From positions 1-41,636 of the IMG/VR virus record IMGVR_UViG_3300017780_003067: a DNA stretch of 41,636 bases; one strand, given 5' to 3'. Below the pieces are notes generated by a model. That model was not told the DNA's origin and did no database searches. It saw only the letters and a list, made by a program, of their open reading frames with translations. This document shows positions 1,310-10,652 of this stretch, piece by piece. Source of the stretch: a virus (Duplodnaviria; Caudoviricetes). Positions within the stretch are counted from its first letter, which is position 1. Each line of letters opens with the position of its first letter. A program made the translations under genes and the position numbers.

Positions 1310-1347
1310 TAGTGCAAAATACAGTTGCTGATATACATTCGTTATGC
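1310..1347 (+). other. attI-like left terminus of the cassette array
   Basis: GATATACATTC-GTTATGC: core GTT at 1341 with no attC hairpin to its left; the ATAC-N4/5-GTT spacing resembles the right arms of attC2 and attC8. Confidence 0.5.
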
Positions 1348-1377
1348 GATATGGTATAAGTCCAACCATATCGCATA
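1343..1377 (-). terminator. 13-bp hairpin closing leftward transcription of the array
   Basis: TATGCGATATGGT (1343-1355) pairs with ACCATATCGCATA (1365-1377), immediately after the stop of 1383..1865; no clear U-tract. Confidence 0.45.
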
Positions 1378-1382
1378 GTTTA

Positions 1383-1865
1383 CTAATTAAGCAATTTTTT
1401 AAGTAACTCTAATTCACTTTCTGACATTGAATTTACTTTATCAACCAGAGACAACATCTTTTCTATTTTGTAAAAATCTATTGAATTAATTTGAGAAAGC
1501 ATTCTTTCAAGATTTGTTTTTGTACCCTCAATGCTTTTTCTCGTATTTTCAGAAATAGAATCCAACTTTTTAAACGTATCATTTGCTTTTTTATAGATGT
1601 CCTCTATTTCTAAAACATAAGCATCTTGGCATTTAGAAAAAGCGTCTTTTATACCTATAAGTTTCGCTGAATACTTTACAGTACTTTCATCTATTTGCCT
1701 TAATTCATCATTTAACCATTCTTTTTCGCTTGCTAAATAGTTTTTTAGAATGGTTTCTTGCATTACTTTATTATCTTTTGCAAGTTCAAACTCTTTTTTC
1801 AAAGTAGGAGTTACGTAAACTGCAACATATTCACTTCTTTCTTCTTTTTTTGATTCGGTTGACAT
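1383..1865 (-). CDS. Cassette 1 hypothetical coiled-coil protein
   Basis: 160-aa helical ORF filling the cassette GTTATGCGAT(1341)...ATCGCATAAC(1918). Confidence 0.8.
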   Translation of the reverse strand: MSTESKKEERSEYVAVYVTPTLKKEFELAKDNKVMQETILKNYLASEKEWLNDELRQIDESTVKYSAKLIGIKDAFSKCQDAYVLEIEDIYKKANDTFKKLDSISENTRKSIEGTKTNLERMLSQINSIDFYKIEKMLSLVDKVNSMSESELELLKKLLN

Positions 1866-1911
1866 TTTATTTATTGTTTAAATTGTTACTAATGAATTAA
1901 AAACCACAATC

Positions 1912-2040
1912 GCATAACACTGTGCTTTTAAAATTTGGGGCTTTACTGGTCATTTGGGCGGTTTTGCCTCTCAGTAATCTACAACTGTTGACACTTCCGT
2001 ATTATTTAGCCCCAAATTTCATAAGCACCTAGCGTTAGCG
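1912..2040 (+). repeat. attC-like site 1 (129 bp)
   Basis: GCATAAC-ACT-GTGCTTTTAAAATTTGGGGCT...AGCCCCAAATTTCATAAGCAC-CTAGC-GTTAGCG. Confidence 0.85.
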
Positions 2041-2046
2041 GTAATA

Positions 2047-2820
2047 CTAAAATCCGCATCGCTGCCTAGCAATCTCGTAATATTTTAATTCCTTTTCAAT
2101 CCCTATAAACTTTCTATTGAGTTCTTTTGCAGCTAAACAAGTTGTGCCAGAACCCATTGTATTATCCATTACCATGTCATTTTCGTTAGAAAATGCACTA
2201 ATCAATGTTTTAAATAAAGGAATCGGCTTTTGTGTTGGATGCAACCCAAGTTCTCTATTGCACTTTAAAACACTACTACTATGTTTAGTATTACTTGTGG
2301 TATCAATAGCCTTTATTTTAGCATTACCTATTACATCTGGCGTGCTAATTCTATTATTTCTACTTTCATTCCTTTTGTCTTTTTCTAATCTTATTACTTT
2401 TTGTGGGTTATATGTTGGTGGCTTTTTATAAAATACTAATATGTTTTCATGAAAATTTAGCCATCTTTTTTTTGCTAATAATGGATTTGATGGGTTTGGT
2501 TTTTCAAATATTAACTCGTATTTAAACAGCTTAGTATTGCTCATTACCAATGCACTTGTAAATGGTTGTGAAGCGGTCAAAACTATTGCTCCGTTATCTG
2601 TAATTATTCTTTCGTATTCCTTCCAAAGTTTATCAAAAGGCAAAATAGTATCCCATTTACAAGCCGTTGTTCCATATGGCAAATCAGCCAGAATTAATTG
2701 AACTGACTTGTCAGGTATCAAAGGAAATACATCAAAGCAATCAGCATGGTATAAAGTACTACCGCTAACACTGTATTTTATAAAATCGGGGCGGTCTTCT
2801 ATTGGGTTAGTTTCTTGCAT
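2047..2820 (-). CDS. Cassette 2 orphan DNA methyltransferase (N6-A/N4-C, beta-type order)
   Basis: Motif IV ADLPYG precedes HPTQKP and motif I DNTMGSGTT; the start codon lies inside attC2. Confidence 0.92.
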   Translation of the reverse strand: MQETNPIEDRPDFIKYSVSGSTLYHADCFDVFPLIPDKSVQLILADLPYGTTACKWDTILPFDKLWKEYERIITDNGAIVLTASQPFTSALVMSNTKLFKYELIFEKPNPSNPLLAKKRWLNFHENILVFYKKPPTYNPQKVIRLEKDKRNESRNNRISTPDVIGNAKIKAIDTTSNTKHSSSVLKCNRELGLHPTQKPIPLFKTLISAFSNENDMVMDNTMGSGTTCLAAKELNRKFIGIEKELKYYEIARQRCGF

Positions 2821-2893
2821 TTAGTTACTATTTTAGCGGTGGATAATTACGGCTTCGGAAAGCCCCTATTTTCTTAAATACTTAGCGTTATGC
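2763..2893 (+). repeat. attC-like site 2 (131 bp)
   Basis: CGCTAAC-ACT-GTATTTTATAAAATCGGGGC...GCCCCTATTTTCTTAAATAC-TTAGC-GTTATGC. Confidence 0.85.
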
Positions 2894-2899
2894 GATACC

Positions 2900-3100
2900 T
2901 TATAAATCCTTGCGTTGTTCATTTCTAATTGCTTCGTATGCTGCAATTTCAACCCTAGCAAAGAACTCATCATACGTTTCGCCATTTTTTGCATAAAATT
3001 TGTAATCATCGGCTTTTATGCGCCATCTAATTTCCTTTGTCTTAAAAGGGAGTTTGGGGCGTTTTGCCCCTTCTCGCTTTCCTCCGTGTCCGTTTGCCAT
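2900..3100 (-). CDS. Cassette 3 small basic DNA-binding protein (GGxRxGA family)
   Basis: MANGHGGKREGAKRPK; near-identical to 6836..7048 but 4 codons shorter (CAA to TAA). Confidence 0.8.
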   Translation of the reverse strand: MANGHGGKREGAKRPKLPFKTKEIRWRIKADDYKFYAKNGETYDEFFARVEIAAYEAIRNEQRKDL

Positions 3101-3402
3101 TATTTTGCTTGGTATTCTATTGTTTTAGGAATAAAAACATGTCCGTCTGGAACGCTATCTCTGTAAGAACCTAAAAATATAGCCCAATCCGTTCCAAATG
3201 AATCTATATTGTAAACAGTGTTGTTTGATTGATTTGCAAAATTTTCTTTTACCTCTTCAATTGCTTCTTCTAATGTTTCTGCCTCTAATTGAAAGCCACA
3301 CAAACCACATAGTTTTTCTCTTTTGCCATTATCATTAAAATGATTGCTATATCCTCTTTTAAGGTCTCTTTTGGCGTTTGTTGTGAATCTAAGAAAGTAC
3401 AT
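3100..3402 (-). CDS. Cassette 3 variable hypothetical protein
   Basis: 100-aa ORF after the TATATTTG element (3423-3430); TAATG overlap with the downstream small gene. Confidence 0.8.
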   Translation of the reverse strand: MYFLRFTTNAKRDLKRGYSNHFNDNGKREKLCGLCGFQLEAETLEEAIEEVKENFANQSNNTVYNIDSFGTDWAIFLGSYRDSVPDGHVFIPKTIEYQAK

Positions 3403-3422
3403 ATCTTTGTCGTTTTGTTATA

Positions 3423-3467
3423 CAAATATACGCAATCATCTTGAATTAGTTGCTAATTATTCAAGAT
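3423..3467 (-). promoter_or_regulatory. Cassette 3 internal promoter with inverted-repeat operator
   Basis: -7 TATATTTG at 3423-3430; ATCTTGAAT (3438-3446) / ATTCAAGAT (3459-3467); conserved in cassette 9. Confidence 0.6.
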
Positions 3468-3508
3468 TATTTTCAAAATATTTCTAACTGACTGAAAGAA
3501 AGGCAATC

Positions 3509-3570
3509 GCATAACACTACCTATACGCAAGCTTCGTTCCTCAGCCATGCGTATAGCTTTAGCGTTAGCG
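3509..3570 (+). repeat. attC-like site 3 (62 bp)
   Basis: GCATAAC-ACTAC-CTATACGCAAG...CATGCGTATAG-CTTTAGC-GTTAGCG; nearly identical to attC5. Confidence 0.88.
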
Positions 3571-3576
3571 GAAGCC

Positions 3577-3771
3577 CTAAGACAAAACCCATCGAAGCAT
3601 TTCAATCTTTTGGTTAGCTACTGTTTCTTTTTCTTGCAAGTTACCATATGCAGTAGAACCATTTTCACGTTCATAATCAGACCATTTATATTCTGACTGC
3701 TGTTTTTTCCAATATTTAACTTCATCTTGAAGTTGGCTTATTTTACTTTCTATTTCGTCTTTACGTTTCAT
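3577..3771 (-). CDS. Cassette 4 hypothetical protein
   Basis: 64-aa helical ORF filling the cassette GTTAGCGGAA(3564)...TTCCGCTAAC(3815). Confidence 0.75.
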   Translation of the reverse strand: MKRKDEIESKISQLQDEVKYWKKQQSEYKWSDYERENGSTAYGNLQEKETVANQKIEMLRWVLS

Positions 3772-3808
3772 TGTTGTATTGTTTTTTATGATTAAAAGAA
3801 GGGTATTC

Positions 3809-3941
3809 CGCTAACACTATATTCTCGCATTTGTGGGCGTTATGGCTTCATTTTGCGGTTCGCTTGCCTTACATCAGCCGTTTTCGGTGGATAGGTCGCC
3901 CCGATCTAAGCCCACAAAAGCGTGAATATTTAGCGTTATGC
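3809..3941 (+). repeat. attC-like site 4 (133 bp)
   Basis: CGCTAAC-ACT-ATATTCTCGCATTTGTGGGC...GCCCACAAAAGCGTGAATAT-TTAGC-GTTATGC. Confidence 0.85.
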
Positions 3942-4145
3942 GATACCTTGTAAAAGTTCTTGGTACTTCTTTTGCATCGCTGTTTTGAGTCTAGCAAAAA
4001 ACGCCTCATATTCTTCGTTTGTGGAGAACTTTTCAAAATCTTGACCAGTAACTCGAATTGAAATAGTTTTTGTTTTGAAAGCGTAAAGAGTGGGGCGTTT
4101 TGCCCCCTCTCGCTTTCCTCCTCTAGTTTCTTTTTTCGTAGCCAT
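3936..4145 (-). CDS. Cassette 5 small basic DNA-binding protein (GGxRxGA family)
   Basis: RGGKREGAKRP...KTKTISIRV; stop codon is the TAA within the core site at 3935. Confidence 0.8.
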   Translation of the reverse strand: MATKKETRGGKREGAKRPTLYAFKTKTISIRVTGQDFEKFSTNEEYEAFFARLKTAMQKKYQELLQGIA

Positions 4146-4315
4146 TATGCTATTTGAACAGTGATAGAATCTCTATATTTTATCAACTCTAAAATCCATT
4201 CTTTCCACTCTGAATCTGGAAGTTCATTTAAAGGTTTGCCAGCTCTTTTTAATTGAGAATTAATTTGAACATTTAATGCTCTCCATTCGTCTCTAAGTTT
4301 TATAGCGTTTTTCAT
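4145..4315 (-). CDS. Cassette 5 variable hypothetical protein (56 aa, not in ORF track)
   Basis: Own translation MKNAIKLRDEWRALNVQINSQLKRAGKPLNELPDSEWKEWILELIKYRDSITVQIA; TAATG overlap with 3936..4145. Confidence 0.75.
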   Translation of the reverse strand: MKNAIKLRDEWRALNVQINSQLKRAGKPLNELPDSEWKEWILELIKYRDSITVQIA

Positions 4316-4337
4316 GTCTTTGTCGTTTTATCTGATG

Positions 4338-4368
4338 TAAAGGTACGACTTATTTTGAATACTGCAAA
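4338..4368 (-). promoter_or_regulatory. Cassette 5 internal Bacteroidota-type promoter
   Basis: TTTG-N19-TACCTTTA on the minus strand (consensus TTTG-N19/21-TAnnTTTG). Confidence 0.7.
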
Positions 4369-4434
4369 CAATAATCAATAATATTTTACAATTATTTTCA
4401 AAATATTTCTAACTAACTGATAATAAAGGCAATC

Positions 4435-4496
4435 GCATAACACTAGCTATACGCAAGCTTCGTTCCTCAGCCATGCGTATAGCTTTAGCGTTAGCA
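4435..4496 (+). repeat. attC-like site 5 (62 bp)
   Basis: GCATAAC-ACTA-GCTATACGCAAG...CATGCGTATAGC-TTTAGC-GTTAGCA. Confidence 0.88.
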
Positions 4497-4502
4497 GTAA
4501 TA

Positions 4503-5285
4503 CTACATTCCATCTCCGAATGAAGTTACTACTGTAAATTCTTTTTCTTTTCTTTTTTCTTCCACCCTCTTTAAAGAAATATTAAAATAATCCATATTAT
4601 TCTCAATTCCGATAAAGTTTCTATTGGTGTTTATACAAGCAATTCCTGTGGTACAACTTCCAAAAGTATTGTCAAGTATTGTATCATTTTCGTTGGTATA
4701 TGTTTTTGTCAAGTTTTCTAAAAGCTCTAATGGTTTTTGGGTTGGATGCAATCCCCTATTACCACCTGTTGTGCTATTATTTGCTTTTATAATGCTTTGT
4801 GGAAAAGCAACATCAATATTATCAGTTCTTTCTGCATTAGGGTCAAATAAGCCATAACAAGTTGTTGCGGTTGCTACTTTTTTATTAGGTCTTATATTTT
4901 TGGCTATTTTAATAGTTTTTTGTGGGTTATAAGTCGGTTGCTTATCATAAAATATTAAAATATCTTCGTGTTTTCTCATTGGCATTTTATTAGCGTTTAA
5001 ATGCCCTGTTGAATGGCTTTTTTCATATACAAGGGAATATTTCAACCATTTCAAATTTGAACAACCAAGCACACTTGTAAAAGGTTGTGAAGCAAAAAGC
5101 ACAACAACTCCATTAGATTTTAAAATTCTCTTATATTGCTCCCAAATCTTATCTAATGGCAATAAACTATCCCATTTGTTTTGAGTTGTACCATACGGCA
5201 AATCCGCAATAATTGCATCAATACTTTTATCAGGTATCAATTTCATTTGTTCTATTGTATCCCCGTATCTTAAATCTATTGTCAT
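4503..5285 (-). CDS. Cassette 6 orphan DNA methyltransferase (N6-A/N4-C)
   Basis: ADLPYG, HPTQKP, DNTFGSCTT (motif I with G-to-C variant), FIGIE. Confidence 0.92.
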   Translation of the reverse strand: MTIDLRYGDTIEQMKLIPDKSIDAIIADLPYGTTQNKWDSLLPLDKIWEQYKRILKSNGVVVLFASQPFTSVLGCSNLKWLKYSLVYEKSHSTGHLNANKMPMRKHEDILIFYDKQPTYNPQKTIKIAKNIRPNKKVATATTCYGLFDPNAERTDNIDVAFPQSIIKANNSTTGGNRGLHPTQKPLELLENLTKTYTNENDTILDNTFGSCTTGIACINTNRNFIGIENNMDYFNISLKRVEEKRKEKEFTVVTSFGDGM

Positions 5286-5376
5286 AATTTTATTTTAATA
5301 TTTCCCAACCGCTCAAAAAAGAAAAGAAAAAGGTTCAGTTCTCCGAATGAGCATTTGTGATTAATTACCGTACTAC

Positions 5377-5442
5377 TGCTAACACCACCTACACGCAAGT
5401 TTTGTGAAAAACAAAACCTGACGTATAGCTTTAGCGTTAGCC
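5377..5442 (+). repeat. attC-like site 6 (66 bp)
   Basis: TGCTAAC-ACCAC-CTACACGCAAGTTTTG...CAAAACCTGACGTATAG-CTTTAGC-GTTAGCC. Confidence 0.85.
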
Positions 5443-6279
5443 GCAATACGCAGACACCCTGCTAACGGCAATTTCAAAATACTTTTCATCTTTCTCTATT
5501 CCGATAAAGTGCCGACCTGTTTTTTTGCAAGCGACACCTGTTGTTCCTGAACCCATACAATTATCTAAAACCGTATCGCCTTCGTTGGTGTATGTTTTTA
5601 TTAAATATTCCATTAATGCCACAGGTTTTTGCGTTGGATGTACTTTGTCTTTTAAATCCACAGGAAAATAAATTACACTTTTAGCCAAGTTTTTATCAGC
5701 TTCAAAATCTTCGTGTGATTTTATTTTAGTTGGGTTCGGTCTTGGTAGCAAGTCTTTCATCGTTTGCGTTCTTTCAACTTCTCTTTGTGGCTGTCTTGGC
5801 TTCCTATCGGTCTTTTGTGAATTATATGTTGCTTTTATTCTTGCATTGTGAGTAAATCCACCTTTTGAAAAAACCAAAATTTCTTCGTGTATTTTCAATG
5901 GCTGATAACTGCCAGCTAAGAAGTTTGCACACTTATCTTTCTCCCAAATAAAAGTATGTTTAAATAGTTTTGTGTTACTCATTACAACTGCACTTGTAAA
6001 AGGCTGCTGTGCCGATAAAACAATACTTCCGTTATCTTTTATAATTCTTTCGTATTGTTTCCAAAGTGGCTCAAATGGAATAATTAAATCCCAAACGGCT
6101 TCCGTTGTATTATAAGGCAAATCGCACAAAATCATATCCACTGACTTATCAGCAATCTTGTCCATTTCCACAAGGCAATCACCCTGATAGAAAGTACTGC
6201 GGCTAACAGCAGCTATACAAAAGGCGGGTTTTAGTGGTTCAATCATATTTTCGTTTTCAAATAAAGTTTTCTGCATCAT
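5437..6279 (-). CDS. Cassette 7 orphan DNA methyltransferase (N6-A/N4-C)
   Basis: CDLPYN, HPTQKP, DNCMGSGTT; starts inside attC7 and stops in the core site at 5436. Confidence 0.92.
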   Translation of the reverse strand: MMQKTLFENENMIEPLKPAFCIAAVSRSTFYQGDCLVEMDKIADKSVDMILCDLPYNTTEAVWDLIIPFEPLWKQYERIIKDNGSIVLSAQQPFTSAVVMSNTKLFKHTFIWEKDKCANFLAGSYQPLKIHEEILVFSKGGFTHNARIKATYNSQKTDRKPRQPQREVERTQTMKDLLPRPNPTKIKSHEDFEADKNLAKSVIYFPVDLKDKVHPTQKPVALMEYLIKTYTNEGDTVLDNCMGSGTTGVACKKTGRHFIGIEKDEKYFEIAVSRVSAYCG

Positions 6280-6333
6280 ATTAAATTTAGTGTTTCAAAA
6301 TCCCGCCCTTCGTATAGCTGCGAAACGTTAGGT
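6201..6333 (+). repeat. attC-like site 7 (133 bp)
   Basis: GGCTAAC-A-GCAGCTATACAAAAGGCGGGTTTT...AAAATCCCGCCCTTCGTATAGCTGC-GAAAC-GTTAGGT. Confidence 0.88.
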
Positions 6334-6364
6334 GAAAACTTAGAAAGGCTGACGCATTTGCTGG

Positions 6365-6748
6365 CTAATTCCTAAAACTACTAGAAATCATATCTTTGAT
6401 CCGTTGCGTTTCGCCCTCTCCATAAACTAGGTCGTAAAAATTCTCAGACGCTTTGTTTATATCGTTTACCTCAAAATGACTAAATAAAATTTCAATTGAT
6501 AACTTATCCGATAATAAAGAATCTAATTCTTTATCAACAAGCCTTATCCATTCTAAAGCTGACTTTGTTGCACCACCACAAAGTCTTGCACCAAATAAGC
6601 GGTGAAAAGCCTCTAAATCTTTCTTCCCGACTTCATGTAATAAACTGTCAGAAATTGAACGGTGATATTGATTTAAAAACGCAATTACAACAAAATGCCA
6701 AGATTTGCTGTTTTTTGGATAATTTTCTAATAAATATTTATTTATCAT
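6365..6748 (-). CDS. Cassette 8 hypothetical protein
   Basis: 127-aa ORF filling the cassette GTTAGGTGAA(6327)...TTCACCTAAC(6793). Confidence 0.75.
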   Translation of the reverse strand: MINKYLLENYPKNSKSWHFVVIAFLNQYHRSISDSLLHEVGKKDLEAFHRLFGARLCGGATKSALEWIRLVDKELDSLLSDKLSIEILFSHFEVNDINKASENFYDLVYGEGETQRIKDMISSSFRN

Positions 6749-6786
6749 GTTTTAACAAATTTATACAGTTGAAAAAAAAGTCGTTC

Positions 6787-6841
6787 ACCTAACACTGTAT
6801 AGAAGCCATTGAAGGAACGGCTTCTATACCTAGCGTTATGC
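6787..6841 (+). repeat. attC-like site 8 (55 bp)
   Basis: ACCTAAC-ACT-GTATAGAAGCC...GGCTTCTATAC-CTAGC-GTTATGC. Confidence 0.88.
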
Positions 6842-7048
6842 GATACCTTGTAAATCCCTACGTTGTTCATTTCTAATCGCTTCGTATGCTGCAATTTCAA
6901 CCCTAGCAAAGAACTCATCATACGTTTCGCCATTTTTTGCATAAAAGTGGTAGTCATCGGCTTTTATTCGCCATCTGATCTCTTTAGTTTTAAAAGGGAG
7001 TTTGGGGCGTTTTGCCCCTTCTCGCTTTCCTCCGTGTCCGTTTGCCAT
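6836..7048 (-). CDS. Cassette 9 small basic DNA-binding protein (GGxRxGA family)
   Basis: Paralogue of 2900..3100; stop in the core site at 6835. Confidence 0.8.
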   Translation of the reverse strand: MANGHGGKREGAKRPKLPFKTKEIRWRIKADDYHFYAKNGETYDEFFARVEIAAYEAIRNEQRRDLQGIA

Positions 7049-7332
7049 TAGTTTATTGGGAATGAAAATACAAGATCATTGAATTGTTTGATTTGGCTTT
7101 TCTCACAAACAACTGCTTTTTCTGGATGGTAGATTATATATTTAGTTGTGTAGTTCATTTTGTGGAAATTAAACAAATCAAACCATTCAACAGAATAAAC
7201 TATAACATCAGCAATTTTAGCTTCTCTAATAGTTACACACTCTTTTACTTCTTCATTTGAAATGCCACATTTTGAAGAAATTGAATTGTAGATAGTGTTT
7301 AGTTCGCTTTGGATGTTTAATAAAGTTGCCAT
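7048..7332 (-). CDS. Cassette 9 variable hypothetical protein
   Basis: 94-aa ORF with TAATG overlap; no visible similarity to 3100..3402 despite shared flanks. Confidence 0.78.
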   Translation of the reverse strand: MATLLNIQSELNTIYNSISSKCGISNEEVKECVTIREAKIADVIVYSVEWFDLFNFHKMNYTTKYIIYHPEKAVVCEKSQIKQFNDLVFSFPIN

Positions 7333-7372
7333 TTGTTTTTCAGTTAATCTTAGCTTCGTTGCTTTCGATATA

Positions 7373-7418
7373 CAATATTACGCATTAATCTTGAATAAGT
7401 TGCTAATTAATCAAGATT
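7373..7418 (-). promoter_or_regulatory. Cassette 9 internal promoter with inverted-repeat operator
   Basis: -7 variant TAATATTG at 7373-7380; AATCTTGA...TCAAGATT inverted repeat as in cassette 3. Confidence 0.55.
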
Positions 7419-7459
7419 ATTTTTAAAATATTTCTAACTGACTGAAAATAAAGGCAATC

Positions 7460-7526
7460 GCATAACACTACCTATACGCAAGTTTTGTGAAAAACAAAAC
7501 CATGCGTATAGCCACGCTCGTTATAA
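7460..7526 (+). repeat. attC-like site 9 (67 bp)
   Basis: GCATAAC-ACTAC-CTATACGCAAGTTTTG...CAAAACCATGCGTATAG-CCACGCTC-GTTATAA. Confidence 0.85.
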
Positions 7527-7527
7527 G

Positions 7528-7686
7528 CTATTTTAAAACAGACCACTCCGATAGCTTACTATTCACCATGTCTTTCAGTTCATCGACTTTTGACACTGGC
7601 ACACGAAAAGCAATAGTAGTGGTAGGTTCGTTGTATTTAGGTTTAGCACCCGAACCTTTTCGGGTGCCACCTGATTTTTTAAGCAT
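7528..7686 (-). CDS. Cassette 10 small basic DNA-binding protein (52 aa, not in ORF track)
   Basis: Own translation MLKKSGGTRKGSGAKPKYNEPTTTIAFRVPVSKVDELKDMVNSKLSEWSVLK; same GGxRxG family; overlaps the stop of 7679..7933. Confidence 0.78.
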   Translation of the reverse strand: MLKKSGGTRKGSGAKPKYNEPTTTIAFRVPVSKVDELKDMVNSKLSEWSVLK

Positions 7687-7933
7687 TGTATGATTTTTTA
7701 TATTTCATCAACAATTTCATTGCGTAAAGATTTGCAGCAGTTTCGTCAGAAAATGATTTGTATTTTGGAGATTCGCCATCAGTTACAAAAACAACATCAA
7801 AGTTGTTATCTGATTCTTTTTGTACAAATGCTGAATAAGAATCAATAGGAGAAAATGTTTTAGTAGAAAGTACGTTGAAAGTATATTCTGTTTGATCAGG
7901 AGTGTTGATGATTTGTACTGTTGAAGTTGTCAT
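7679..7933 (-). CDS. Cassette 10 variable hypothetical protein
   Basis: 84-aa ORF downstream of the promoter at 7957-7987. Confidence 0.78.
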   Translation of the reverse strand: MTTSTVQIINTPDQTEYTFNVLSTKTFSPIDSYSAFVQKESDNNFDVVFVTDGESPKYKSFSDETAANLYAMKLLMKYKKSYNA

Positions 7934-7956
7934 ATCGCTGTTCGTTTTATCTGATG

Positions 7957-7987
7957 TAAAGGTAACACTTTATTTTGATTCTGCAAA
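7957..7987 (-). promoter_or_regulatory. Cassette 10 internal Bacteroidota-type promoter
   Basis: TTTG-N19-TACCTTTA; shares CGTTTTATCTGATGTAAAGGTA with cassette 5. Confidence 0.7.
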
Positions 7988-8037
7988 CTATTTCAAAAAG
8001 AAAGTGAAAATAATTTTCGAGCGACAATAAAAACAGC

Positions 8038-8091
8038 ATATAACACTGTATAGAACGCAACTAAAGTGTGCGTCTATTCTTAGCGTTAGTT
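8038..8091 (+). repeat. attC-like site 10 (54 bp)
   Basis: ATATAAC-ACT-GTATAGAACGCA...TGCGTCTATTC-TTAGC-GTTAGTT. Confidence 0.82.
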
Positions 8092-8457
8092 TCAATCTTG
8101 TAAGACGAGTTCTTCGCCAAAAAGAGCAAAATATAAGTTCTGTAACTGGTGTACAAATTCAATCAATCTTAAACATGTACCTAGAAACCAAAATTCATTT
8201 CCAATAAAATATATGTCATTATTTTTGTCAAAATACCACATCTCGAAATCTTCCGAAATAAATCCAAATCGACCCTTAAAGTAATTATTTAATACAATCG
8301 GCTCTATGTCTTCAAATGAAGTCTCATGGTATGACTCCCCATTAAATGTAGTAAAATTTATTCCTGTTTTTGTAACTGACTCGACCAGTGTTAGTGTCTT
8401 ATCTAATAATACTAAATTGTTTAATGTATACATATTTTCAAATTTTACGGTTGACAA
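8092..8457 (-). CDS. Cassette 11 hypothetical phage protein
   Basis: C-terminal IEFVHQLQNLYFALFGEEL motif recalled from Bacteroidota phage proteins; the start may be the ATG at 8433. Confidence 0.78.
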   Translation of the reverse strand: MSTVKFENMYTLNNLVLLDKTLTLVESVTKTGINFTTFNGESYHETSFEDIEPIVLNNYFKGRFGFISEDFEMWYFDKNNDIYFIGNEFWFLGTCLRLIEFVHQLQNLYFALFGEELVLQD

Positions 8458-8470
8458 AAAAAAGACTAGA

Positions 8471-8559
8471 AACTAACATTGTGTTCAAAAAACGGCAGAT
8501 ACGGTACTACTTTCGATACTGCATTCAGAAGCCGTTTCATGAACACTTCTTCGTTATGC
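8471..8559 (+). repeat. attC-like site 11 (89 bp)
   Basis: AACTAAC-ATT-GTGTTCAAAAAACGGC...GCCGTTTCATGAACAC-TTCTTC-GTTATGC. Confidence 0.82.
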
Positions 8560-8847
8560 ACAATGCTTAGAGGCGTACGCATTAGCAAGTTCACCCAATT
8601 TTTCTTCCTTATAATGAGATCCAACTGGGTTGCCATTTAATGCTCCTTGAAGCTGGTCAACTACTCGTTGTTCATAACCTTTTTTATAGGCATCAATTAT
8701 CTGTTGTTTCTCTTTTTCTAAAAAACTTTCAGCTTTTGACTTTATTATAATTGCTTGATTTTTAGCTCCAATTGCTTCATCTGGCAATACTTTTACGATA
8801 GTATCAATATTCTCAACTAATTCTTGTAATACTGTTTTTTGTGACAT
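8554..8847 (-). CDS. Cassette 12 hypothetical phage protein
   Basis: Likely start MSQKTVLQ; EKEKQQIIDAY motif; stop in the core site at 8553. Confidence 0.78.
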   Translation of the reverse strand: MSQKTVLQELVENIDTIVKVLPDEAIGAKNQAIIIKSKAESFLEKEKQQIIDAYKKGYEQRVVDQLQGALNGNPVGSHYKEEKLGELANAYASKHCA

Positions 8848-8893
8848 ATTCTTATTATTTAAATTGGTTACTAGTGGACAAAAAAGCACGTGT

Positions 8894-9017
8894 GCATAAC
8901 ACATTATTAGCGTTATTGCCTTTCATACGGTTTGATTCTGTACTCATAATTCAGTCTATTTTGTGGTTAAAATTCATTTTTGATAGGCAATAAACGCCAA
9001 TACGTGTCTCGTTATTC
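8894..9017 (+). repeat. attC-like site 12 (124 bp), right end of array
   Basis: GCATAAC-ACATTATTAGCGTTATTGCCT...AGGCAATAAACGCCAATACGTGT-CTC-GTTATTC; the TTA is the stop codon of 9012..9329. Confidence 0.8.
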
Positions 9018-10040: not shown

Positions 10041-10652
10041 ATGGCTAGTATAGTAGCAACAAACACAGGCGGTGGCGATTTTGCACCAATGGAAGCAGGA
10101 ATGTACGTTGCACGTTGTGTGCAAATGATTCAAATCGGTACAGTTACCGAAAACATTCAAGGCAAAGAAAAGACTTTACATAAAGTAAGGTTTGGTTTTG
10201 AGTTCCCAACAGAAACGAAAGTTTTTAAAGAAGAAAAAGGAGAACAACCTTATTTCTTGTCGAAGGAATACACACTTTCAATGCACGAGAAATCAACACT
10301 AAGATTACACTTAGAAACATGGAGAGGTAAAAAGTTTACAGAAGATGAAAGCAAGTCTTTTGATGTTACAAGACTACTAAAAGTACCTTGCATGATAAAC
10401 GTAGTTCACAAGGTAAGCGAAAAATCAGGCAAGACATTTGCCGAAATTGGGAGTATTTCACCTTTGATGAAAGGCATGGTTTGCCCTGAACAAATAAACG
10501 AAACTTCTTTGCTTTGCTACGATGATTTCAACGAACAACTTTTTGAGTCTTTGCCTGATTTTTTAAAGGATAAAATCAAAAGTTCGGTTGAATACTTTGC
10601 GATGAAAAATGTTTCGCAAGAACCACATCCAGCTGACGACTTAGCGTTTTAA
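10041..10652 (+). CDS. Putative single-stranded DNA-binding protein
   Basis: G-x-Y-x-ARC, SKEYTLSMHEKSTLR...WRG, acidic C-terminal tip DDLAF. Confidence 0.65.
   Translation: MASIVATNTGGGDFAPMEAGMYVARCVQMIQIGTVTENIQGKEKTLHKVRFGFEFPTETKVFKEEKGEQPYFLSKEYTLSMHEKSTLRLHLETWRGKKFTEDESKSFDVTRLLKVPCMINVVHKVSEKSGKTFAEIGSISPLMKGMVCPEQINETSLLCYDDFNEQLFESLPDFLKDKIKSSVEYFAMKNVSQEPHPADDLAF

Follow-up and report, generated by a model that had tools for sequence, protein, structure and literature searches.

A mobile array of twelve reverse-oriented cassettes in a phage genome, probably run in trans by an IntI-related tyrosine recombinase of Bacteroidota

Organization of the cassette array

The DNA analysed here (the window) is the whole of the 41,636-base pair (bp) virus record IMGVR_UViG_3300017780_003067 (Caudoviricetes), which is rated 100% complete, is classed as linear and has terminase, capsid, primase/helicase and tail-type genes. 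Twelve units tile positions 1341-9010 of this phage without gaps. We are fairly confident that they form a mobile array of reverse-oriented cassettes behind a likely docking site, and that the array is likely run in trans by an IntI-related tyrosine recombinase of Bacteroidota. A preliminary description, made from the sequence alone, had proposed an integron-like array with GTTA borders at thirteen positions, i.e. the twelve unit starts and a closing GTTA at 9011, and all thirteen were found there. Its further claims were that each unit ends in TAAC followed by an imperfect palindrome of 54-133 nucleotides (nt), that TAACACT opens and TAGCGTTA closes eight of the twelve sites, and that every unit holds one gene or a two-gene operon. 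These were borne out as well: the palindromes have that length in 12/12 units when measured with 7-nt boxes (48-127 nt from TAAC to GTTA), both motifs were recounted in 8/12 sites, and eight units have one open reading frame (ORF) while four have two. The statement that no integrase is present in the window also holds. No match to PF00589 was found across the complete record, so the phage is without a tyrosine recombinase and the element without an IntI integrase gene.

The array opens with a head of the form TATA-5 nt-GTTA with no hairpin before it (1325-1350, plus strand), a likely docking (attI-like) site picked out by a matrix ranking of GTT positions. The units are likewise given along the plus strand, and all of their genes lie on the minus strand. 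Unit 1 (1341-2033) contains a 160-amino acid (aa) gene without a named family (1383-1865) and a hairpin at 1915-2037, and unit 2 (2034-2886) an N6/N4 DNA methyltransferase gene (2047-2820; PF01555, E value 1e-32) with its first ATG within the hairpin at 2766-2890. Units 3 (2887-3563; start 91% like that of unit 9), 5 (3935-4489), 9 (6835-7519) and 10 (7520-8084) have two genes each, located at 3100-3402 and 2900-3100, 4145-4315 and 3936-4145, 7048-7332 and 6836-7048, and 7679-7933 and 7528-7686, with hairpins at 3512-3567, 4438-4493, 7463-7523 and 8041-8088, respectively. Units 6 (4490-5435) and 7 (5436-6326) encode two more methyltransferases of PF01555 (4503-5285, hairpin 5380-5439; 5437-6279, first ATG within the hairpin 6204-6330). 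The other units are unit 4 (3564-3934) with a 64-aa gene (3577-3771; hairpin 3812-3938), units 8 (6327-6834) and 11 (8085-8552) with genes of 127 aa (6365-6748; hairpin 6790-6838) and 121 aa (8092-8457; hairpin 8474-8556) without a named family, and unit 12 (8553-9010) with an ORF at 8554-8904 and a hairpin at 8897-9014 that includes the closing GTTA.

The orientation of the cargo, 16/16 ORFs on the minus strand, is opposite to that of textbook cassettes, and forward genes read from a head promoter as in integrons were not found in the array. The paralogous units 3, 5 and 9 have the right-hand and not the left-hand hairpin in common; the hairpin thus sits on the upstream side of its gene, and compared with textbook cassettes the genes run backwards.

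The two ends of a unit match each other. In 10/12 units the 10 nt up to and including TAAC are exactly reverse-complementary to the first 10 nt of the same unit, and the remaining two have perfect complementarity runs of 9 and 6. At six variable positions, own ends matched in 70/72 cases compared with 26/72 for the adjacent GTTA, and when unit starts were permuted, none of 200,000 permutations reached 70 matches (mean 33.7). This is the pattern expected of units that exist as circles. Beyond the arm of 9-10 bp, 12/12 units have A or G at the next position, followed by another four pairs that are in register or shifted by one. The AAC/GTT core is present in 12/12 sites, column identity among the array sites is 42%, and the loops are very variable. 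Run on the top strand of the 41.6 kb, a site detector made 14 calls, comprising the 12 array sites (scores 20-34.5) and two weak calls elsewhere (17.5 and 18.5). The layout is that of an attC-site cluster that lacks an integron integrase (CALIN), with two or more attC-type sites clustered and no integrase.

Exchange of whole units among related phages

A blastn search gave matches in cultured Baltic Flavobacterium phages (Muminvirus), whose variable region consists of the same reversed arrays without a recombinase. It had been predicted that related phages would differ by whole cassettes with junctions at GTT, and this was found: Muminvirus-type records with near-identical backbones differ by whole units, and the breaks are at GTTA. 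A fixed gene order, named beforehand as an observation that would speak against shuffling, was not seen, as 11 Muminvirus-type records had 7 distinct unit orders. In 28/29 junction comparisons, identity ended either 0-4 nt ahead of the G or 4-5 nt past it, 22/29 being clean on both sides. Left junctions ended 0-4 nt before the G in 15/16 cases, the exception being a site missed by the detector, and right junctions ended 4-5 nt after the G in 13/13 cases, six of them with altered hairpin ends. By comparison, gain, loss and reordering therefore occur with breaks within GTTA, in keeping with a crossover at G^TT although not resolvable to one base. Single cases illustrate this. Over 9 kb, mumin6-1 and mumin6-3 are 99.9% identical apart from one 506-bp unit; filifjonk9-1 carries an additional unit at the array head, one unit was found at different positions, and head gains occurred for which upstream identity was 0 nt. 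The idea of a plug-in, shuffleable array is sustained by this gain, loss and reordering of units among relatives.

Units of the window itself recur elsewhere. Units 6 and 7 have 80-92% homologues in Muminvirus-type phages with matches starting at their GTTA: those of unit 6 to phage mymlan6-1 start at 4489 (92%) and finish at 5449 (90%), and for unit 7 an 80-83% match in Muminvirus-type records spans exactly 5435-6330. For unit 10, a match of 77% starting at 7519 was found in a viral contig that carries a recombinase (L163). A contig of run X2 joins the end of unit 2 (2656-2885) to the start of unit 1 (1340-1446) with no differences, and an X2 match to unit 8 begins at 6327 and is preceded by other sequence. 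Runs X2 and X3 contain unit 4 as a whole between different flanking sequences (match 3563-3939/3942). Three shorter joints connect the unit-1 hairpin to units 5, 8 and 12; run X1, which may be where the window comes from, was left out of the joint counts. In X2, unit 12 has the same body and flank with a different 104-nt hairpin interior.

A candidate recombinase family in chromosomes and phages

A 28-nt pattern taken from site 7 was searched in the bacterial genomes (a third of the collection) and gave 122 bacterial loci; among those listed, 77/80 were Bacteroidota by title. Cassettes in these chromosomes are forward in 90/97 cases (two loci overlap), and several chromosomal arrays follow a co-oriented tyrosine recombinase of 350-390 aa and a TATA-N5-GTT head. 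This host enzyme was detected in 50/101 genomes sampled from the genus of the Flavobacterium record G001 (E value at most 1e-110). TATA-N5-GTT occurred within 260 nt behind the recombinase at 20/28 loci of the Flavobacterium genus compared with 27/900 background windows. We infer that enzymes of this family would be the cognate enzymes of the array.

The preliminary description had likened the array to integrons, which are recombined by IntI enzymes. This comparison needs a correction: the likely enzyme is not a canonical IntI, since eight candidates scored 189-219 bits, in two stretches, against the TIGR02249 cut-off of 265, and since the IntI insertion is missing. The enzyme lies below every NCBIfam curated cut-off, its best scores being to XerA-like and IntI models, and it aligns to VchIntI4 (2a3v) in two stretches, skipping the insertion and being about 40 residues shorter between them. 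The host form has an N-terminal extension of about 90 residues and points towards the array. The phage form, of about 267 aa, is divergent from the arrays. At 80 viral loci, every detected unit is on the strand opposite the enzyme and 205/217 genes are reversed; the head lies within about 30-66 nt of the estimated start of the enzyme at 39/80 of them. Phage and host enzymes form separate branches (98/95, in a tree without an IntI outgroup).

A host recombinase acting in trans had also been proposed. The phage does lack an enzyme of its own, and the host is one of two options because there are other phages with an enzyme branch of their own. Most likely, the phage would borrow its recombinase from the host or from a co-infecting phage. 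The reversed layout ties the cassettes to the phage pool, yet a host enzyme would be on hand most often; we estimate that a host-type enzyme is mildly favoured, that a co-infecting phage is a possible source and that any other is improbable. The same findings bear on a different history, namely that the array is a frozen relic whose ancestral phage-type recombinase was lost and in which homologous exchange with other phages is now the sole source of change. Reversed orientation is the hallmark of phages carrying their own enzyme, phage and host enzymes are on separate branches, hairpin interiors have been swapped on the same gene, and homologous exchange could spread junctions first made elsewhere. 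We nevertheless consider a relic unlikely. The ends of the units still match at 70/72 positions, and the recombinase-free Muminvirus records differ by exact units, including the gains at the head without upstream identity.

Relatives of the enzyme were also noticed outside these sets. Polaribacter phage Leef_1 (L272, 2246-6852) has a distant recombinase relative in divergent layout with family-like hairpins upstream, where four family-like sites were called, two with matching own ends; it is a candidate for a complete system. The cultured phage Ingeline_1, with a distant enzyme, had one weak site call. On the Acinetobacter plasmid NZ_CP041297 (L274, 3519-5640), a truncated recombinase of the host family (51% identity) directly precedes tet(X3), with GTTA before the gene and TAACA plus a partial arm after it. 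The ends match at 7/10 positions by eye, the detector called no complete site at this locus, and the piece may have been captured from a chromosomal system. The Chryseobacterium plasmid NZ_CP041688 (L275, 5980-13020) encodes a full-length recombinase that is followed by forward-oriented units and, at a greater distance, by a group II intron gene.

Folding and strand bias of the sites

Folding of the bottom strands had been suggested as a check. In circular form, the folds of the window sites had z values of -3.0 to -10.3 relative to 100 dinucleotide shuffles, and the bottom strand was the better-folding one in 12/12 sites, as in integrons. With a strand-neutral site detector, i.e. one without a preference for bottom-strand wobbles, the bottom strand was more stable in 115/120 host, 203/207 phage, 28/30 Muminvirus and 11/11 window sites. 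Position 11 of the arm is A or G in 67/71 host, 105/106 phage and 16/16 Muminvirus in-register units and pairs as T.G only on the bottom strand; it matches in 4% of units, compared with 68-86% for positions 12-15 (in sets chosen on 7 bp only). Mismatches at positions 5-10 were wobbles on the bottom strand in 48 cases, on the top strand in one and on neither in 68, these being related and not independent sites.

Forward and reversed genes alike go with a better-folding bottom strand, and the bias hence follows the site and not the mRNA. This bears on the view that the hairpins are RNA elements, i.e. terminators or processing sites, at which modules are swapped by short-homology recombination. 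In the window phage the better-folding strand is the mRNA strand, and three ORFs start inside hairpins. In chromosomes, whose mRNA corresponds to the opposite strand, it is again this strand that folds better. Moreover, terminator-like sites were at chance level (6 found, 4.6 +/- 2.4 expected), and Rfam gave no match at gathering score and one at chance level. RNA elements would also leave unexplained why matching ends lie 250-900 nt apart and why a recombinase stands at array heads, and we regard this view, which had been raised at the outset as a possible refutation, as scarcely credible.

The folds have a one-sided bulge of 2-4 nt beside the core, with a conserved T at L+7 and a conserved A at L+15. 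The inner stem of integron attC sites has two extrahelical bases at set positions, and these folds do not show them. A constant single extrahelical base was not found either: L+15 was unpaired in 2/120 host, 4/207 phage, 0/30 Muminvirus and 3/11 window folds, where minimum-energy folding can shift bulges within A runs, and a single unpaired base at L+9 occurred in 2/120 host folds and in none of the others. We had considered a constant extrahelical T at L+15, an idea that failed on these counts.

It could still be argued that these are ordinary attC sites handled by the canonical IntI of some host, as in a textbook CALIN. Polarity, AAC/GTT core and bottom-strand bias are the same, and IntI1 recombined five of six phage sites (PMC9892861). 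Yet the only family-type site assayed there failed with IntI1; this site, attC1 of Polaribacter phage P12002L, maps to a hairpin of the family layout behind a reversed methyltransferase. With the box consensus RYYYAAC / GTTRRRY as written in PMC9892861, the full GTTRRRY is present in 1/12 window, 9/101 host and 16/158 phage starts. The inner stem is without a constant single bulge, and the enzymes adjoining such arrays are without the IntI insertion. In addition, the available part of Neron et al. (2022; PMC9024848) mentions one complete integron, that of Salinibacter ruber, for Bacteroidetes proper. Canonical IntI as the operating enzyme appears very unlikely to us.

The array head

The head of the window ranked first among 1818 GTT positions when 38 phage and 8 host heads were pooled into one matrix, and fourth and third of 1818 under the separate matrices. 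It likely resembles the docking site of the enzyme, judging from these ranks. An AATCAA-type motif, which we take to resemble the consensus of integration host factor, was noticed about 25-40 nt before the head GTT in several phage heads (L153-L230) and at 1303-1315 in the window. An imperfect inverted repeat of 32 nt (1208-1272), located between the 67-aa gene (996-1199) and the head, overlaps a promoter-like element. No remnant of a recombinase was noticed in this area, where phage-type enzymes start, although no dedicated search was made.

Proposed mode of action and its significance

In the mechanism we envisage, a cassette would travel in circular form, and its bottom strand would fold to give a single long arm. 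Outside the core this arm would have 9-10 bp, the wobble T.G at position 11 and a further 4 bp; inside the core it would have the bulge of 2-4 nt and a stem that measures about 20 bp. The enzyme would pair the folded bottom-strand site with the double-stranded head or with another site and exchange strands within GTTA. A circle would have the full outer arm and a site in the array a mismatched one (26/72), which would favour insertion over excision. The reversed genes would be read along the leftward early region of the phage and, in phages keeping the enzyme, towards the head and the recombinase gene. More tentatively, and with somewhat less than even confidence, we suggest that Bacteroidota and their phages may possess a separate integron-like system with an insertion-less enzyme of the Xer/IntI type, forward in chromosomes and with a mirror-image phage pool, and that recombinase-free lytic phages may hijack the host enzyme to load and reshuffle counter-restriction genes.

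Several points weigh against a mobile array run by this enzyme family. The link between enzyme and array is one of position only, and the host is presumably a member of Bacteroidota, judging from shared cassettes and sites, its identity being a further weak point. The match of the window head is modest (score 7.5, next best 7.1), and the Muminvirus head ranks 28, 1179 and 66 of 1680, misfitting the matrices though units are gained there. Among the joints listed at 96% likeness, 4/12 are at GTT between units, three of them with a short side of at most 30 nt, and contig joints do not distinguish circles from arrays in a new order. Because of the kinship among sites and among units, the counts do not represent independent events. 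No close whole-genome relative of the phage was found: nine loci obtained via the 203-aa protein at 10041 differ in gene order and contain no array, no viral sequence matched a pattern built on the beginnings of units 3, 5 and 9, and a hairpin-end pattern gave five loci without units. Finally, the same gene body can bear another hairpin (6/13 right-hand comparisons), which means that not every change occurs at GTT and that a second exchange route, probably homologous, also acts.

If the proposal is correct, a phylum with almost no reported complete integrons, as far as the available part of PMC9024848 goes, has a common gene-capture system, which would escape standard models; its enzyme is present in 50/101 genomes sampled from one genus. 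Phages would use the same sites to exchange accessory genes as a plug-in kit against host restriction, and gene-by-gene mosaicism in these phages would have a site-specific explanation. An enzyme that acts on folded single strands without the IntI insertion would also bear on the origin of integron integrases from Xer-type enzymes. The differences in methyltransferases that were tied to plating efficiency in cultured Muminvirus isolates by Nilsson et al. (2020; PMC7077304) would be explained as well. That study describes 15 methyltransferase genes over 35 genomes, and phages plating less on LMO6 were missing one methyltransferase. Since cultured isolates differ in these genes, a test system is already at hand.

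Relation to known systems

The array behaves like an integron cassette array but lacks several hallmarks of integrons. Common features are a candidate tyrosine recombinase of IntI/Xer kin, a likely head site without a hairpin, one-gene units, the AAC...GTT core, matching ends within a unit, the bottom-strand folding bias and gain at the head. In contrast to integrons, the window phage has no enzyme, its cassette genes are reversed and GTTRRRY is mostly absent, whereas the candidate enzyme is without the IntI insertion and has, in the host form, the N-terminal extension and an orientation towards the array. The attC box of integrons is 7 bp long, compared with an outer arm of 9-10 plus 4 bp in units of the window type. 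With XerC, XerD and XerA the family shares a Xer-sized catalytic domain as well as the best NCBIfam scores (XerA-like and IntI models), but it remains below the cut-offs, is tied to hairpin cassette arrays and stands apart from true XerD in the tree.

The preliminary description knew of no characterisation of such arrays for Bacteroidota phages, a statement that needs correction. Integrase-less attC clusters in phages are already published: Qi et al. (2023; PMC9892861) report 17 such clusters from 10,705 phage genomes, including one with methyltransferases in the Bacteroidota phage P12002L. Like the window array, these CALINs occur in virulent phages, consist of attC-type sites with no integrase and have methyltransferases as cargo. 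The 14 additional phages described there, none a Flavobacterium phage, have 2-4 sites each, compared with 12 in the window. The authors assume IntI, and neither a reversal of genes nor a distinct enzyme nor shuffling between isolates is noted in the available text. The variable methyltransferase region of Muminvirus is an array of the window kind; in the main text of PMC7077304 the word integron occurs 0 times and the sites are not described. No paper on this cassette and recombinase system was found in the literature searched, in which subscription papers are largely uncovered. The attC2 oligonucleotide of P12002L reported in PMC9892861 (L271, 5185-5250) corresponds, on the top strand, to the sequence before the first reversed methyltransferase unit. 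It would be the head site of the array, which would account for the sites reported as 'divergent' in that paper.

Cargo genes

The region had been described as an anti-defence region. This is supported for 3/16 genes, the N6/N4 DNA methyltransferases of units 2, 6 and 7, which likely protect against host restriction; the rest lends it no support, as the 13 other cassette genes had no named family in PHROGs, Pfam and PADLOC. A PHROGs 'recombinase' match on 3100-3402 (E value 2e-4) was discounted, as its 59 residues are too short. No RNA dataset was listed as holding the array sequence, which has no bearing on expression. For three ORFs the first ATG is inside the own hairpin (2766-2820, 6204-6279 and 8897-8904), and the hairpin loop may encode their N-terminus.

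The four two-gene modules (2900-3402, 3936-4315, 6836-7332 and 7528-7933) consist of a variable gene followed by one for a small basic protein of 52-70 aa with a GG-K-R-x-G motif. They are possibly self-regulated. In units 5 and 10 there is a TAnnTTTR element, 19 nt upstream of which lies TTTG; we presume that this corresponds to the Bacteroidota promoter consensus. Units 3 and 9 have an upstream inverted repeat in common.

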